Shown one piece after another: positions 24,922 through 34,741 of a stretch of 35,877 nt of DNA. The stretch lies in the IMG/VR virus record IMGVR_UViG_3300029888_000103. One strand, given 5' to 3'. The translations under genes were made by a program, and so were the position numbers. The stretch's first letter is position 1, and each line of letters starts with the position of its first letter. The notes under the pieces are model-generated. The model was not told the origin of the DNA. It saw only the letters and a list, made by a program, of their open reading frames with translations, and ran no database searches. This DNA comes from a virus (lineage: Duplodnaviria; Heunggongvirae; Uroviricota; Caudoviricetes).

Positions 24922-24955
24922 AAAGCGCCTGCTACTGCAGGCGCTTTGTTTACTC
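24922..24955 (+). terminator. intrinsic terminator after Q
   Basis: 11-bp perfect stem AAAGCGCCTGC-tact-GCAGGCGCTTT followed by a T-rich stretch; overlaps the stop of the convergent 97-aa ORF. Confidence 0.65.
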
Positions 24956-25243
24956 TTTAACAAGTGTGCCCCATACCGAGTCTTCAACCTCTTCAACAAC
25001 AATATTGATGTTGCAAATAACATGGTCTTCACTTACTCGAGTATATCTGAATAACCTTGATTTCACTTTCCCACCAAACGACTCACGGTCTTTATTGTTG
25101 GTAATGTCGACATAATCCCCAACATTCGGAAGCATCAGGAGTGGATTGTCTTCCGAAGAACATCTTACAATCTCTCCATCATCAAGAGGTCGCGTATCCC
25201 CTTTACGTAAGTATTGAAAGTCATAGTTGTATATGGTTTTCAT
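24950..25243 (-). CDS. hypothetical 97-aa protein (cargo between cos and Q)
   Basis: ATG with an AGGA Shine-Dalgarno sequence; AT-rich ORF with no recognisable motif; convergent with Q. Confidence 0.5.
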   Translation of the reverse strand: MKTIYNYDFQYLRKGDTRPLDDGEIVRCSSEDNPLLMLPNVGDYVDITNNKDRESFGGKVKSRLFRYTRVSEDHVICNINIVVEEVEDSVWGTLVKE

Positions 25244-25613: not shown

Positions 25614-26486
25614 TTAAGCTCTCTTAATCAACCCCTTATGCGTTGCTTTGGTAAGATAAGCTAATTCTTTAGGCCCCTTATCTCTAAAGCCCACCCATTC
25701 TGGTTGGAATTTTATAAAACTTGGAATTGCGGTTGCCAAGGCTGTAACCATACCGGGAATAATACCGCCTGAATCACCAGCAATAGCAGCATGGTACAAC
25801 GGTTTTAAAAATTCCATAACCTGCCCACCATCTACTTCTGGATTAACTTTGACTCCCATTCTGATAGGATTTCTCCATTTCCCTTCGATAGCTTTATCAA
25901 GATTAACTACAGCCTCTTGTAATAAAGAAAAATTTTTAGCCCTCGTTAGATTAGGGTCTCTAGAATAAAGGACTTCAGTATACAGTTTTTCTAAGTACTC
26001 ATGTAACGCATTAAGATCATCCTGACAATCATCTTTAAAACGTAATATATCTTCTATATGAGCATCTTTATCAGGAATTCTCAGAACATTAAACAACTCC
26101 AATCTCAACTGAAGGGCCGTTTTCTGTTCTTTATCATATATTAAATTCTCCCCTGTTTGATGAAAGTGCCAATAAGTAGCAGGCTCGTTCTTCCTGAATT
26201 CATCCAATGTCTGCAACTGAAATTCCGTATATAAAAATGGAAAGTCTTGGATATTCAGCATACCATCATGTTTCATAATAGGTCTACGTAATACCCCATT
26301 ATCTAATAATTCTTTTTCTTTAGGCACAATCGAGTGAATATTTTCACTATCTAGAATAACCACATCATCCCAGTAAAAGCAGAAATAATTAATATCCTGC
26401 TCAGTTAAACCTGCCCCAAGATAGACCGTACTATTATTTCTATGAAAACTCATTTCATTAGGATTAGCTACAATGCCACGTTTCAT
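25614..26486 (-). CDS. uncharacterised 290-aa protein in the old/tin-equivalent accessory slot
   Basis: ATG at 26486 with a strong AAGGAG Shine-Dalgarno sequence (the ORF-track start at 26510 is a GTG); AT-rich; hydrophobic C-terminal segment (DSGGIIPGMVTALATAIPSFI); no motif I can assign. Confidence 0.6.
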   Translation of the reverse strand: MKRGIVANPNEMSFHRNNSTVYLGAGLTEQDINYFCFYWDDVVILDSENIHSIVPKEKELLDNGVLRRPIMKHDGMLNIQDFPFLYTEFQLQTLDEFRKNEPATYWHFHQTGENLIYDKEQKTALQLRLELFNVLRIPDKDAHIEDILRFKDDCQDDLNALHEYLEKLYTEVLYSRDPNLTRAKNFSLLQEAVVNLDKAIEGKWRNPIRMGVKVNPEVDGGQVMEFLKPLYHAAIAGDSGGIIPGMVTALATAIPSFIKFQPEWVGFRDKGPKELAYLTKATHKGLIKRA

Positions 26487-26697
26487 TCTTGCTCCTTGAT
26501 AAGCATACACATTTTAAGAATGACATATATTCTAATAATTTCAATACATTATGAGTTATAACTAAAAGTGCAGCATAGGTCTCGCCCTGATAGATAATCA
26601 AGTGATTACTGTCTTTTTACTTATGGTTAACGCCTCTCAAGGCTCGCGGTTCAACCTTGCTGACGCCAGAAGCAGGTTCAGACGCCAGCAACGTTTC

Positions 26698-26931
26698 TTA
26701 ATGCAACCAGCTGTCGTCTTCCCACACCTTCTGCATAATTTTCATCACTTGTTTTCTTTCTTCGTCCAGTTGCAATCCGGTAAGTTCCACACCGTTAGAG
26801 CTACCTTTGCGGATACGAATTACCGTTTTGGGATACAGGGGGCGCAGATTGCGGTAAAGCTCGGATTCAAGGGCGTCCAGTGTAGACTGGCTAATCTTCT
26901 GCTCTTTATCGATCATTATTTCAATGCGCAT
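26698..26931 (-). CDS. DinI-family protein (Tum C-terminal-like)
   Basis: 77 aa from MRIEIMIDKEQKISQSTLDALESELYRNLRPLYPKTVIRIRKGSSNGVELTG...WEDDSWLH, which parallels E. coli DinI (MRIEVTIAK...); GAGGTG Shine-Dalgarno sequence before the ATG at 26931. Confidence 0.75.
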   Translation of the reverse strand: MRIEIMIDKEQKISQSTLDALESELYRNLRPLYPKTVIRIRKGSSNGVELTGLQLDEERKQVMKIMQKVWEDDSWLH

Positions 26932-26941
26932 AAAAGTCACC

Positions 26942-27130
26942 TCAGCTGATGACATCCATTGAGCGGTTGTATTCGTGGGTTCTGATTTTTGCCATGAGTT
27001 CATCTGTCAGTTCAGAAACCCACTGCAGAGCCAGCCCCTTCTCTTCATCACTACACTCACTAGCCGCTACAAGCTTAAGAAAAAAATCAATGCGCTGGAG
27101 CTTCAAAGACTCCAAAAAATAGTCCTGCAT
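26942..27130 (-). CDS. small ORF (62 aa), possible N-terminal part of a Tum-like antirepressor
   Basis: ATG at 27130 preceded by AGGAGGAAAG; a LexA box lies 40-60 bp upstream; its 3' end overlaps the DinI-like frame. Confidence 0.5.
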   Translation of the reverse strand: MQDYFLESLKLQRIDFFLKLVAASECSDEEKGLALQWVSELTDELMAKIRTHEYNRSMDVIS

Positions 27131-27170
27131 CTTTCCTCCTATGACACCAAAGCAATACTGTATACATAAC

Positions 27171-27190
27171 CACTGTTTATATTTACAGTA
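27171..27190. promoter_or_regulatory. LexA operator (SOS box)
   Basis: cACTGTttatatttACAGTA = CTGT-N8-ACAG with an AT-rich spacer, matching the TACTGT(AT)4ACAGTA consensus; an additional half-site-like TACTGTATAC lies at about 27155-27168. Confidence 0.7.
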
Positions 27191-27282
27191 TATAATAATC
27201 TTACTGATGTAAAACGTTTTTTTACGCTCATCAGCCTGATATGCCTGGTATTATTAAGAGCACGAATTGTTAACCCGCGTAA

Positions 27283-29697
27283 TTAATACAGGTTTCGCCA
27301 CTTATCATCTTCCTGCAAACGCTGGTTCCGATAGAAGATACGCAGGCCTGCTCCTGACGGAATACTGCCGCCGCGAAGGAGTAAATCGACCTCTTTCTCG
27401 CTGCCATCAAATCCCCTGGACTTCAGTTCATACACGAGCTGCAGTCGCTGATGGTCTGTAATTCGCTGTTTGTAGTCTTTACGCCGTTTCGGTTTCACCA
27501 GGCGTAACCTTGCTGCCAGTTCCCGGCGCTCTTTTTTGCTCATACTGTGCAGGTAATCGTGCAACTCCTTGTCATCCATGCGGGTGATATCCGTTCTGGT
27601 ATCTCCATCAGCTGATTTGTCTTTCCCTTGTTGGTACAAATTTTCAGCAAGGGGACAGTTATTGCCACGAGTCCAAGGGGCGCAAGCGCCCTGGTCGGCT
27701 GCCGCCTCCTGAACGTCAACGGCCTTACGAACCATTTTCCACTTCACTGCATGAGTGCAGATCTTGCCCTCTGCAATGGGTGACCAGATGCCATAAATAC
27801 GAATACCGTGATCGCCATAGGCGGTTGGCTCTTCGTTGATTTCATAAGCGGTTCTGATGAGGTGATATTTGCGGGGAACCAGTACGCCGCCCTGCTTCAT
27901 GATGTAGGTGGCAAAACAACCAGCATCAGCAGCAGCCAGAATGGCATCAAGACGCGGGTTATCCAGTACCGGCGCACCTGCTTTTTTGTCACCCTGTTGC
28001 CTTGCCGCCTGACCAGCCAGCAAGCGAAGTTCACGGTAAGCCTGACGTCCCGGAATACCAAAGAAGCGGAATTGCTGAACACGATGCAGAGACGCCCAGG
28101 CATTAACGTATTCAGCGTTATCACGCAGGGATTTACCCGTTTCCTTGCTGATCTCGCCAGCCAGACCACGCCCGTCAATGTTCTTACTGATGTATTTCGC
28201 GATGTAGCTTGTCGGCGTTCCTTTGCGCGGGTTTATCAGCTCAGATTTAAAGCGTGGACCAGTGTTATTACCCAGTTCCTCGCGGTCTTCACGGATGGCA
28301 AACTTACGCAACAATGCAGTAATGGCGCGGCGGTCTTTTTTGCGCATGAAACACAACAGGTGCCAGTGAACTGTACCGTCATGATGCGGCTCAGCCACCC
28401 GCACGCCATACCAGCGCAACCCGGCTTTGTGCATCGCCTTACGAAATGCAGCAAACATGCCGACCAGATAATCGCTGCTTTGTCTTACCGTCGCATTTGT
28501 CCAGGTTGGGTTTGGTCTGCCGTTATTGAGCGTGGAATGGAAACGTGACGGACAGGTAATGGTGTAGAAAACGGCGCAGTCACCGCGCATTTCCGCGATA
28601 AGCTCCAGACCTTTAACACAGGCCATCATCTCATTGCGGCGGTGCGCCGGGTTGCTGCTGCTGGCGTTTACCACGTCTTCCATATCCAGCGTGTCGCCCT
28701 CTTCGTTCACCAGTTCATGAGAACGGAAAAACTCCAGTGACTTGCGGCGCTGCTCACGTTTATGCATCACGGCTTCATAGCTGACATAGGGAGATGCTTT
28801 TTTGCTGACCAGGCAGACAGCACGCAACTGCTCTTCCCGCCATTCGCAACGCATTTTCCATAATTTCCGGTACCACCAGTCGGCGCACAACATACGCGCC
28901 AGCGAACCCGGAATGAGTTCATAGGGCACGGGTTTACGGCGGTTTCTTTTCCGACGGAGTTGCTCAAACGCAGGCGGGATGACATCCAGACGCAGGGTTT
29001 CCGCTGCCACCTTTTCCCATGTCTTGCGGATTTCTTCTGGCTTAACGTCATCGGTGGCATACAAATCACCACAAGCTGCATCAAGGCACATGCTCATATG
29101 CGCAGCGACAAGGGTAGACAGGCGTTTCACCTGATCCTGACTCATTTCAGGCAGAATCAGCAGGCCGTCCAGCCCTACATGGCTTGCCATAAAACGAAAA
29201 GATGCAGATAGCTGGCTGTCGCGTACATGCTCCAGTCGTTCCAGACATGGCTTAATCGTCTCACGTAAATAGCGGGAATAAGCCTTTGGCCTGCCCAGGC
29301 TGCTGAAGTATTCAATACGTTGCATCAGCGGCTTGCTGATATGGGAGGGCTGGGCGCTGACGTCTGCCAGAATGACCATGTCCGGGTTAAAACGCTGCTG
29401 CTCATGCGCCAACTTTGCCCGGCTAATGAGCTTATCCTGCTCTATTTCGCGTTGGACAGGATCACGGGATTCATTAAAGAAATAACGCTCCCAGACCTGA
29501 TCACTCAGTGCCTCGCGGCGCAGTTGTTCCTGCTCGTTATCGGCAGCGTACAGAGTGATCAGGTTTGAAAGCGCAGAAACCGGCGCAACTTCCGCCGGGT
29601 CCAGATAAGGGTTAATGGCCTTTTTCGGGCTGTTCCATGAGAACGATGCGGCAGCCTCGTTAAAGCCGCAGCAGTTGCTCATATCGGCATGGCTCAT
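27283..29697 (-). CDS. A: replication initiation protein gpA (rolling-circle initiator family)
   Basis: 804-aa ORF in the gpA position of the early operon; start overlaps the stop of the upstream methylase gene. Confidence 0.88.
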
Positions 29698-32400: not shown

Positions 32401-32472
32401 AAGTACCCAAATGGGGACAAAATTGATACTAGGATCGCAAAAGAGATATGTCAACATCAAAGTACCCAAATG
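32401..32472. promoter_or_regulatory. direct repeats in the immunity switch region (candidate operator elements)
   Basis: AAGTACCCAAATG occurs twice (32401-32413 and 32460-32472), 59 bp apart, flanking the candidate promoter. Confidence 0.4.
32426..32454 (-). promoter_or_regulatory. candidate early lytic promoter (pR-like)
   Basis: Minus strand reads TTGACA-17 nt-TAGTAT; the -35 overlaps the cI start codon, so a bound repressor or polymerase here would couple the two transcription units. Confidence 0.5.
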
Positions 32473-33044
32473 AGATCAAAATAAATCCCAATAAAGGTGG
32501 TAAGGCTGCGATTGAGCGATTAGTCGAAGCTTATGGCTTTACGACACGACAGGCTTTAGCTGATCACTTGGAAGTATCAAAAAGCACTCTGGCGAACAGG
32601 TATTTGCGGGATACGTTTCCTGCAGACTGGATAATCCAATGTGCTCTTGAAACAGGAACCTCACTGAAATGGTTAACCACCGGGCAAGGCCTTAAGCAAA
32701 GCTCGCTGACAGCAGCTACAGAAGAGCTTGCCAAGTTTCGCCTTACCGCAGGCAAAATGATTGAAGATGGTTCATATGTCTTCGATTCATCATTTCTTCC
32801 TGCAAATCTTTCATCACCAATTGTTATTCAGGATGGGCTCGTCACATACATTTGTGATCAAAAATTTTCTGAAGTACTTGATGGGCACTGGTTAATCAAC
32901 ATCGACGGAACCTATTCCATTCGAAAAATCACAAAGCTTCCAAAAGGTATGATTAAAATTACAAGTACAGAGAATAGCTTTGAATGTGCATTTTCTGATA
33001 TTGAAGTAGTTGCTTGTATAAGAAGTACAATAGTTTCAAATTAA
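32448..33044 (+). CDS. cI: CI immunity repressor (186 type)
   Basis: 198 aa; N-terminal HTH region (…AIERLVEAYGFTTRQALADHLEVSKSTLANRY…ALETGTSLKWLTTGQG) and a C-terminal domain, like 186 CI in length and organisation. Confidence 0.85.
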   Translation: MSTSKYPNEIKINPNKGGKAAIERLVEAYGFTTRQALADHLEVSKSTLANRYLRDTFPADWIIQCALETGTSLKWLTTGQGLKQSSLTAATEELAKFRLTAGKMIEDGSYVFDSSFLPANLSSPIVIQDGLVTYICDQKFSEVLDGHWLINIDGTYSIRKITKLPKGMIKITSTENSFECAFSDIEVVACIRSTIVSN

Positions 33045-33064: not shown

Positions 33065-34741
33065 ATGAATTCATTTTCCATCGTTATATTCTTATTAGCA
33101 TTTCTCGCCCCCATTCTAGCTGTAATATTATTTAAGCAAAGCAAAAAACATAAAGCGGCTATAAATACCTTGACAGCTAACAACATAGCCCTTTCCAACC
33201 AACTGAAAGAAAATCAAGAAGAATTAGCACAGACTGTACGAGAACTATCAGAGCTTGAAGGACGAGCTGCGCCATTATGGCAATACGTAGAATTGCACAG
33301 CGCAGTGATGGAAGCAGAGAATAAGATAAAAAATGCAGACTCAATAGCCAGGCAAAAAATAGAAGAAGCCCAAATAAAGGCTGCTAAGACAGTAAACGAA
33401 GCAAATTATCAAGCTCAGATAAAAATAAGCAACGCTAATAGCGAAGCTATAGCAATTACTAAAGACGCTCGCGATGCACGCCTGAAAGCTAAAGAACGTC
33501 TTGATAATGCCAATAGTAAAGCAAATGAGCTGATCTCAAATGCTAATGACAATGCAGTGAAAATTATTTCCGATGCAGAAGAAAGAGCAAAAGAGATTGC
33601 TGGTTCAGCATATGAAGCTAAAGAGTTTGCAGAAAAATATGAAGCAGTTGCCAAATCAATGAAAAATAAAATTGAAGGTTATGGTGATGAATGGATCATC
33701 CCTAACCGTAGCGTTCTCGATGAATTGGCAGAAAATTATGAGTTTACAGATGCAGGTAAGGAATTACAAAAAGCCAGGGAGTTAACAAAATCATTAATAA
33801 AAACTAATAAAGCTGCTTCGTGTGATTATGTTGAACAAAACAGGCGTAATACTGCTATCAACTTTGTTTTAGATGCCTTCAATGGAAGAGTTGACAGTAT
33901 TTTATCAAAAGTCAAACACAACAATTTTGGAAAACTTTCCCAAGAGATAAAAGATGCGTTTCAACTTGTAAATTACAATGGTTCTGCCTTTAGGTCCGCA
34001 AAAATAAGTGACATCTATCTTCAAGCTCGACTCAACGAGCTAAAATGGGGAGTTGCAGTTAATGAAATTATGCTCGAAGAAAAAGAAGAGCAAAGAAGGA
34101 TTAAAGAACAACTTCGTGAAGAGGAAAGAGCTCGTAGGGAGTATGAAAAAGCGATAAAAGAAGCTGAAAAAGAAGAGAAAGCTATTCAGCAAGCTATAAA
34201 TAAAGCAACAAAAGAGCTTATGCTTGCAAATGAAGAACAACGCTTAGCTTTAGAGCAAAAAATAGCTGAACTACAGTTAAAATATGAAGAAGCTGAAGCT
34301 AAAAACCAACGAGCTATTTCTATGGCTCAACAAACTAGATCAGGCCACGTTTATATAATTAGTAATATTGGCTCATTTGGCGAAGATGTATATAAAATTG
34401 GAATGACACGCCGCCTTGAACCACTTGATCGTGTTCGTGAACTCGGTGATGCTAGTGTTCCTTTTTCGTTCGATGTTCATGCGATGATTTATAGTGATGA
34501 TGCACCATCATTAGAAAATCATCTGCATAAAGTCTTCAACGAAAAACAGGTCAATAAAATTAACTCACGAAAAGAGTTTTTCAACGTAAATATTAAAGAA
34601 ATTAAGTCTGTTATTGAAGATATGAACATCAACGCACAATGGACAATGTTTGCGGAAGCGAAAGAATATAGAGAGTCACTGGCGATTGAGCAAGAGCGCA
34701 AAGCAGCAACTTCCGCCAACGATGAACTGCATGTTGCTTAG
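33065..34741 (+). CDS. membrane-anchored coiled-coil protein with DUF4041-like and T5orf172/GIY-YIG-like C-terminal module (cargo)
   Basis: 558 aa; N-terminal TM helix (FSIVIFLLAFLAPILAVILF), about 250 aa of A/K/E/N/Q-rich heptad-like sequence, and a C-terminal region GHVYIISN...VYKIGMTRRLEPLDRVRELG...FDVHAMIYSDDAPSLENHLHKVF that I recognise as T5orf172-like; AAGGA Shine-Dalgarno sequence; 20 bp after the cI stop. Confidence 0.8.
   Translation: MNSFSIVIFLLAFLAPILAVILFKQSKKHKAAINTLTANNIALSNQLKENQEELAQTVRELSELEGRAAPLWQYVELHSAVMEAENKIKNADSIARQKIEEAQIKAAKTVNEANYQAQIKISNANSEAIAITKDARDARLKAKERLDNANSKANELISNANDNAVKIISDAEERAKEIAGSAYEAKEFAEKYEAVAKSMKNKIEGYGDEWIIPNRSVLDELAENYEFTDAGKELQKARELTKSLIKTNKAASCDYVEQNRRNTAINFVLDAFNGRVDSILSKVKHNNFGKLSQEIKDAFQLVNYNGSAFRSAKISDIYLQARLNELKWGVAVNEIMLEEKEEQRRIKEQLREEERARREYEKAIKEAEKEEKAIQQAINKATKELMLANEEQRLALEQKIAELQLKYEEAEAKNQRAISMAQQTRSGHVYIISNIGSFGEDVYKIGMTRRLEPLDRVRELGDASVPFSFDVHAMIYSDDAPSLENHLHKVFNEKQVNKINSRKEFFNVNIKEIKSVIEDMNINAQWTMFAEAKEYRESLAIEQERKAATSANDELHVA

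Follow-up and report, generated by a model that had tools for sequence, protein, structure and literature searches.

The locus examined here raises the question of whether a 186-type prophage carries an intact SOS module or a broken one. In phage 186, Tum is a protein of 146 aa with a DinI-like C-terminal half, encoded in one reading frame, whereas the window, i.e., the whole 35,877-nt stretch of DNA that was analyzed (IMG/VR record IMGVR_UViG_3300029888_000103, Caudoviricetes), holds two genes with a stop between them (Table 1). An earlier note on this DNA had described a Tum/DinI-like module split into two overlapping frames, and had left open an intact two-gene arrangement, a tum gene inactivated by a frameshift, or a sequencing indel. 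Only the first of these survives, and we consider it close to certain that the region is structurally an intact two-gene operon: the single fused 146-aa arrangement of 186 is not found here, as a TGA stop, a 10-nt spacer with a Shine–Dalgarno (SD) sequence, and an ATG in another frame separate the two genes. We are slightly less sure of the complete description, which we nonetheless regard as very likely, namely an intact LexA-repressed two-gene SOS operon of a 186/Fels-2-type P2-like prophage, with TumA as antirepressor and TumB as accessory protein.

Table 1 Features of the SOS module and its surroundings, in window coordinates
Feature	Position	Strand	Remarks
tumA-like gene, 62 aa	26942..27130 (including TGA stop)	-	predicted antirepressor
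tumB-like gene, 77-aa DinI family	26698..26931 (including stop)	-	SD GAGGTGA 26943..26937
LexA (SOS) box TACTGTAAATATAAACAGTG	27171..27190	-	putative -10 formed by its first six bases (27190..27185)
Second, weaker LexA-like 20-mer CAGTGGTTATGTATACAGTA	27156..27175	-	5-nt overlap with the first box
Putative -35 TTTACA, p95-like SOS promoter	27208..27213	-	17 nt 5' of TACTGT
Strong hairpin, no U-run	26657..26691	-	directly 3' of the tumB stop
Replication gene A (context)	27283..29697	-	Pfam Phage_GPA, E 1.7e-127
cI, 186-type immunity repressor	32448..33044	+	presumed TumA target

The motif CTGT-N8-ACAG occurs once in the window, within the proposed LexA box. The bare 8-base core is not significant alone (0.44 matches expected in the window); the full 20-mer has 3 mismatches to the LexA consensus TACTGTATATATATACAGTA, none of 100 shuffles did as well, and it is the sole match in the window at ≤3 mismatches. 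The box is also kept in position and sequence across loci of >40 species. A 40-nt leader separates it from the tumA-like ORF, which starts at ATG 27130 behind the SD sequence AGGAGG (27140..27135) and ends with TGA at 26944..26942, and both the near-consensus SOS box and the good SD of the ORF downstream of it hold up as first described. The same layout is found in 186, where promoter p95 has the -35 TTCACA, the -10 TACTGT, and a LexA site on the -10, and in nearly all of 44 homologous loci TTTACA or TTCACA is present at 17-nt spacing. Based on this likeness to p95 and on conservation, we assign TTTACA-N17-TACTGT as a putative promoter; a generic sigma-70 promoter scan of positions 26400-27400 called none, because TACTGT is a poor -10. 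Taken together, a box placed on the -10 as in p95 supports, at the level of sequence, the earlier proposal that the 62-aa/DinI-like module is under LexA control.

The second, weaker LexA-like element departs from the consensus at 5 positions in the window. It is conserved in most enterobacterial loci, and it outscores the first box in loci L007, L010, and L025. Given the 15-nt offset between the two elements, it is doubtful that two LexA dimers would be bound at once.

For the 62-aa protein, the closest named counterpart is STM2728 of Fels-2 (98.4% identity), and the ORF matches phrog_698 (E 3.6e-38), a family labeled 'unknown function' for which paper searches found no experimental work. BLASTP of the ORF directly against 186 Tum gave no alignment. 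At the profile level, residues 1-70 of 186 Tum match phrog_698 (E 6.7e-6) in a co-linear fashion (7-44 vs 7-44), and phrog_8554 is matched by both the 186 Tum N-terminus (E 3.3e-12) and the 62-aa ORF (E 2.4e-8). The PSP3 TumA family, phrog_1993, is matched by the ORF only weakly (E 0.0022), while an hhalign comparison of two family alignments gave E 4.4e-4 over columns 3-43 vs 3-43, with a probability of 33% at low diversity. By eye, the 62-aa ORF, 186 Tum, and PSP3 TumA have in common the core C-x6-(L/I)AL-x-(L/W)(I/V)(A/S)(E/D)(L/I). Because these profile matches and the shared core come with identical synteny and promoter architecture, we regard it as established, as far as sequence comparison goes, that the 62-aa ORF is remotely homologous to PSP3 TumA and to the N-terminal half of 186 Tum. 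An AlphaFold2 model of the protein is a two-helix hairpin (helices 2-23 and 28-61, pLDDT 90). A PDB sequence search with the TumA profile gave no match, Foldseek of the model against PDB returned generic helical hairpins only, none at E ≤ 0.001, and a PADLOC scan of TumA and TumB gave no defence-system match.

Across the wider family, a protein search recovered homologs of the 62-aa protein in 484 clusters at 90%. Among the best 120 of these 484 clusters, the modal length is 62 aa, and entries that exceed this length either extend too far N-terminally, across the promoter, or are C-terminal variants; no fusion to DinI was found for the 62-aa family in these best 120 clusters, nor in the 44 loci. 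For TumA relatives of the 186 type, the matches listed, which did not include full-length 186 Tum itself, comprise stand-alone as well as read-through forms. The 62-aa gene is usually annotated as 'hypothetical protein' and sometimes as 'levan regulatory protein', and gene callers often stretch it N-terminally over its own promoter. A fitting name would be tumA-like antirepressor.

The DinI-like nature ascribed to the downstream ORF is confirmed by a match to Pfam DinI (PF06183) that scores 81.3 bits, above the cut-off of 24.2 (E 6.6e-23), and spans profile positions 1-63 of 63, and by a phmmer match to the E. coli DinI structure 1GHH over residues 1-75 (E 2.7e-6). The 77-aa protein is 100% identical at the protein level to STM2726.1 of Fels-2, 77.9% identical to PSP3 TumB, and 41% identical to residues 71-145 of 186 Tum, which, together with the profile matches of the 62-aa ORF, agrees with the suggestion that the two ORFs represent the two halves of 186 Tum. 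In an alignment with DinI, its acidic C-terminal segment QKVWEDDSW falls on the C-terminal helix region, and, by analogy, TumB would function in modulating RecA filaments and the SOS response.

Directly downstream, the hairpin that follows tumB has an 11+3 bp stem in both the minimum-free-energy and centroid folds, within a 201-nt intergenic fold that is unexceptional overall (z -0.99). It is possibly a partial terminator or an RNA-stability element, and 186 has the partial terminator t95a at the equivalent position. In three loci without tumB (L015, L025, L045), this hairpin comes right after the tumA stop, and tumB would therefore be a cassette that can be inserted and deleted. What lies beyond differs between phages: orf97 of 186 is absent in the window, and the downstream cargo is STM2726 (243 aa) in Fels-2 vs a 298-aa DUF6236 protein in the window.

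Both PSP3 and Fels-2 are known to have this two-gene form, which is very common; the window carries an ordinary intact form and not a broken 186 tum. In all of 186, PSP3, and Fels-2, as in the window, the SOS module lies directly downstream of gene A. PSP3 has the same two-gene order behind a LexA box overlapping the -10, and its genes are annotated accordingly, tumA (60 aa) as 'similar to 5' end 186 tum; UV induction of prophage' and tumB (77 aa) as 'similar to dinI and 3' end of 186 tum'. PSP3 TumA and the 62-aa protein share the motif C-x6-LAL-x3-E, although they fall in different families (phrog_1993 vs phrog_698), the tumA-tumB spacer is 3 nt in PSP3 vs 10 nt in the window, and the two CI repressors are only 35% identical. 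Fels-2 of Salmonella LT2 is closer, with the LexA box, -35, SD, 10-nt spacer, and post-gene-A position all as in the window, and with STM2726.1 annotated as 'DinI family... similar to TumB PSP3'. The split of tum in PSP3 and Fels-2 has been reported before, with the upstream gene considered the antirepressor (Lemire et al. 2011), a role assigned in PSP3 via a personal communication (PMC3121763). Even in 186 itself the DinI-like part is also made separately: tum has three internal starts, the last of which, a GTG after AAGGAGG, yields a 76-aa DinI-like 'truncated Tum', and the alignment of the 77-aa protein to 186 Tum begins exactly at this internal GTG.

We next considered the presumed target of TumA, the CI repressor. 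The window protein contains both Phage_CI_repr (PF07022, E 8.1e-32) and Phage_CI_C (PF16452, E 4.1e-27), and Apl/Cox-like and CII-like proteins are encoded near it, in line with the designation of this prophage as 186-type. This CI shares 33% identity with that of 186 and 98% with that of Klebsiella phage KP12. Near-identical TumA proteins (98-100%) are found in 4LV2017, Cartapus, RE2010, Kp4846-2, ST340-VIM1phi10.2, and ST15-OXA48phi14.1, whose CIs are overall only 38-50% identical to that of the window. This divergence is unevenly distributed: the CI N-terminal domains of the same-TumA phages are 72-84% identical to the window's and the C-terminal domains 27-36%, as exemplified by the Fels-2-like RE2010 (83% and 33%, respectively). 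For 186 and PSP3, which have other TumA types, the N-terminal domains are only 44-47% identical to the window's and the C-terminal domains 26-27%. Over 13 phages, a small and phylogenetically non-independent sample, TumA identity correlates with CI N-terminal domain identity (Spearman 0.88), while the correlation with C-terminal domain identity is not significant (Spearman 0.41). Linkage does not explain this pattern, since the adjacent C-terminal domain does not follow it. This suggests that TumA may contact the DNA-binding domain of CI, in which case a single TumA allele could be active against several CI variants.

These observations bear on the strongest of the alternatives, namely that the SOS operon is intact but that the 62-aa protein is not a CI antirepressor, having instead another target or modulating SOS or replication, with another route of induction or none. 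The similarity of the protein to the 186 Tum N-terminus and PSP3 TumA is remote, its family carries no assigned function, and the same TumA allele is paired with CIs that differ substantially overall, all of which would fit such a role. Against it stand the position, promoter, operator, and partner gene, which are those of tum and tumA in 186 and PSP3, and the co-variation of TumA with the N-terminal but not the C-terminal domain of CI. In addition, Fels-2 carries this same protein, and the lethality of lexA null mutations in Salmonella, attributed to Fels-2 in the title of Bunny et al. 2002 as cited by Lemire et al. 2011, fits a LexA-repressed antirepressor. For 186, Tum is described as binding CI and blocking its binding to operators (Shearwin et al. 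1998, as cited in PMC3121763). A comparable logic is found in the Gifsy dinI-gfoA/gftA modules, in which a LexA-repressed pair of a DinI homolog and a small antirepressor inactivates a non-cleavable repressor (PMC3121763), although these differ from the window in having dinI first, in belonging to lambdoid phages, and in their unrelated antirepressor and repressor families. By analogy with 186, PSP3, and Fels-2, TumA is likely a CI antirepressor, and we consider a different function improbable.

How widely and in what form the two genes are maintained was assessed by scanning species-representative genomes, which yielded 40 loci and, with phage loci and the window added, a set of 44. The scanned loci came from Escherichia, Citrobacter, Enterobacter, Klebsiella, Raoultella, Kluyvera, Serratia, Pantoea, Erwinia, Tatumella, and others. 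In 38 of the 44 loci, the small ORF encodes 62 aa. A DinI gene lies downstream in 25 of 44 (21 intact at 77 aa and 4 truncated), with a tumA-tumB spacer of 8-13 nt that includes an SD, while the remaining 19 have the small ORF and LexA box with no DinI gene within 1.5 kb. At the junctions, TGA, TAA, and TAG stops and relative frames 0, 1, and 2 are all seen. Both genes are under strong purifying selection, with median dN/dS (Nei-Gojobori) of 0.077 among 37 unique tumA sequences and 0.072 among 21 unique tumB sequences. Within E. coli, the module is present as two CDS in 1125 of 5426 complete genomes, under the RefSeq labels 'DinI-like family protein', 'hypothetical protein', and 'replication endonuclease' for consecutive genes, and phages 813R9, Cartapus, Fels-2, and PSP3 have both CDS in their annotations as well (named tumA/tumB in the last).

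The apparent overlap of the two genes calls for a separate comment. Both frames are indeed open across 26942-27003, as the earlier note had stated, because the DinI frame continues upstream of its start to an ATG at 27003, a 24-codon extension that makes a 101-aa ORF. To describe the module as split into overlapping frames is misleading, however. The Pfam DinI match covers residues 38-100 only of the 101-aa ORF, the extension has no DinI or Tum similarity, and it is unconserved, as the relative frame of tumA and tumB differs among homologs; moreover, 24 stop-free codons are expected by chance in about one case in three ((61/64)^24 = 0.32, our own arithmetic). The overlap thus arises from the way in which ORFs are listed, with each one opened at the first ATG following a stop. 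The DinI-like start is instead the ATG at 26931, which lies shortly past the upstream stop, as first noted, at the end of a 10-nt spacer, with the SD GAGGTGA spanning the tumA stop codon five bases 5' of the ATG. We also considered a terminator-like hairpin at 26953..26936 that would sequester this SD as a translational-coupling device, and rejected it: it is confined to the window/Fels-2 lineage, is absent at other tumA/tumB junctions, and has z -1.2 relative to shuffles.

Could the two genes nonetheless be pseudogene fragments of a fused, 186-type tum, with SOS inducibility lost? The combined 62 + 77 aa come near the 146 aa of 186 Tum, and the ORFs are in different frames in the window. The boundary of stop, SD, and ATG is conserved in >40 species, though, and no single indel restores a common fused frame, because the stops differ and all three relative frames occur. 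Degenerating fragments would also be hard to reconcile with dN/dS of ~0.07-0.08 for both ORFs, with a second ORF that has its own 7-nt SD and ATG, or with the retention of tumA alone in 19 loci. The same split is present in the functional, inducible phages PSP3 and Fels-2, and the internal SD and GTG from which 186 translates its DinI-like part align with the tumB start. Comparison with homologs, set beforehand as the test, therefore found the same two separate ORFs with conserved boundaries in related prophages, and this refutes inactivation by a frameshift as well as a sequencing indel.

A third possibility is that ribosomes undergo a programmed +1 frameshift in the 62-nt region 27003..26942, adding a Tum-like fusion to the two separate products. 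Such an event would make use of the stretch over which both frames are open, and 186 does produce several Tum isoforms from one gene. Among homologs with nearly the same TumA, however, the frame of tumB varies (0, +1, +2), and where tumA and tumB are in frame they are separated by TAG or TAA. There is no conserved slippery site or stimulatory structure, the junction hairpin being unconserved, and nearly half of the loci lack tumB altogether. Conservation, dN/dS, and the E. coli genomes thus make programmed frameshifting very unlikely, and by the same evidence a frameshift pseudogene is ruled out. An indel introduced by sequencing or assembly of this record, to which nothing but the frame difference points, can likewise be dismissed, as E. 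coli ZH177 carries a 100% identical copy of the 701-bp region, the twelve E. coli records listed all match it at 99.6% or more, 813R9, Cartapus, and Escherichia sp. MOD1-EC7003 have the identical junction, the identical sequence recurs in independent assemblies, and the module is found in the 1125 complete genomes.

Based on what is known of 186, PSP3, and Fels-2, from which we infer LexA binding, the antirepressor activity of TumA, and the role of TumB, the intact operon would operate as follows. In an undamaged lysogen, LexA would occupy the box over the -10 of the p95-like promoter and keep the operon silent. Upon DNA damage, RecA-stimulated cleavage of LexA would free the promoter, and one mRNA would give rise to TumA (62 aa) and TumB (77 aa) from separate ribosome-binding sites. 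TumA would then bind the 186-type CI, a repressor that is itself not cleavable, probably at its N-terminal DNA-binding domain, and CI bound in this way would lose its hold on the lytic promoter, leading to induction without CI cleavage. TumB would be an optional accessory, probably modulating RecA filaments and thereby the SOS signal. By this analogy, the window prophage is predicted to be SOS-inducible. The inducibility of Fels-2 is not simply transferable to it, since the CI differs substantially, and in the related Salmonella prophage BTP5 tum is expressed with no infectious phage after mitomycin C (PMC7067206), so that an intact tum module is no guarantee of productive induction.

Building on the patterns described above, we tentatively propose that three features belong together, a combination that we see as possible but somewhat doubtful: TumA would recognize the N-terminal DNA-binding domain of CI, tumB would be a cassette that is gained and lost, and 186 Tum would be a derived tumA-tumB fusion. 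If so, one near-invariant TumA allele (98-100%) would work on prophages with only 27-36% identity between their CI C-terminal domains, and could cross-induce them. The C-terminal oligomerization domains of these CIs would have diverged from one another as much as from 186 CI, and the fused Tum of 186 would have kept the tumB ribosome-binding site as an internal start.

For annotation, this prophage should be entered as one with an intact SOS module and a predicted inducibility by mitomycin C or UV, and not as locked in by a broken tum. As about one in five complete E. coli genomes carries the module, the gain in annotation may be broad. Biologically, the analysis establishes nothing new, and offers modest leads in the TumA/CI N-terminal covariation, the cassette behavior of tumB, and the second LexA-like element. 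Of these, the association of TumA type with the N-terminal domain of CI would provide a specific and cheap prediction regarding both the binding surface and the cross-induction of co-resident P2-like prophages.

Among 13 phages (L046–L058) compared with the window, identity in TumA, the 62-aa predicted antirepressor, correlated with identity in the N-terminal HTH domain of CI, the presumed TumA target (Spearman 0.88), while the correlation with the CI C-terminal domain was not significant (Spearman 0.41), in what is a small and phylogenetically non-independent sample. Phages whose TumA is 98–100% identical to that of the window carry CI C-terminal domains just 27–36% identical to the window's.

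The DinI-family gene tumB was missing from 19 of the 44 loci examined (species-representative genomes, phage loci, and the window), and shortened copies were found in another four. A strong hairpin follows the tumB stop in the window, and in loci without tumB (L015, L025, and L045, around positions 1690–1740) the same hairpin lies directly 3′ of the tumA stop. Taken together, the hairpin position and these counts of absence and truncation indicate that the DinI-like gene acts as a dispensable cassette. In the split forms, the tumB start (window 26943..26929) aligns with an internal Shine-Dalgarno sequence, AAGGAGG, and GTG in phage 186 (L003 5270–5300), known there as the start of “truncated Tum”. 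Such an alignment fits a view of 186 tum as a tumA–tumB fusion that retained the tumB ribosome-binding site. Both stand-alone (63–64 aa) and read-through forms occur among 186-type TumA relatives.

Features of the window near the tumA–tumB operon and the immunity region
Feature	Coordinates	Strand	Remarks
97-aa protein	24950-25243	-	Slot downstream of tumB
DUF6236 protein, 298 aa	25614-26510	-	Slot downstream of tumB
Strong hairpin	26691..26657	-	3′ of tumB stop; no U-run
Second LexA-like 20-mer, CAGTGGTTATGTATACAGTA	27175..27156	-	Imperfect; 5-nt overlap with box 1
558-aa gene	33065-34741	+	Between cI and int; PADLOC match to PD-Lambda-1

Upstream of tumA, the second LexA-like element is offset by 15 nt, centre to centre, from the predicted LexA box (box 1). 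It is kept in most enterobacterial loci, being closer to consensus than box 1 in three of them (L007, L010, and L025), and is absent from the short-leader loci of Pantoea/Erwinia. Gene callers often lengthen the 62-aa gene to 84–109 aa (window 27130–27231, minus strand; homologues P0005–P0117), beginning at in-frame upstream ATGs within the promoter and LexA box, and some records name the homologue “levan regulatory protein”. Both the N-terminal extensions and this label look like annotation artefacts.

The slot that follows tumB forms a variable cargo hotspot adjoining the SOS operon: where the window has the DUF6236 and 97-aa genes, neither of which was matched by PADLOC, phage 813R9 encodes a 383-aa Hypoth_Ymh protein, Fels-2 carries STM2726, and phage 186 carries orf97. 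Within the prophage immunity region, the 558-aa product contains DUF4041 and T5orf172/MUG113 Pfam domains, and with its match to the anti-phage defence protein (E 4.4e-120) the gene looks like a defence moron.

At 87% coverage and 96.8% identity, Klebsiella phage KP12 was the nearest phage record to window 11000–35877; Escherichia phage vB_EcoM-813R9 came second. KP12 and the window are also 98% identical in CI and 100% identical in TumA, and this likeness suggests that Klebsiella and E. coli both host the same circulating prophage type.
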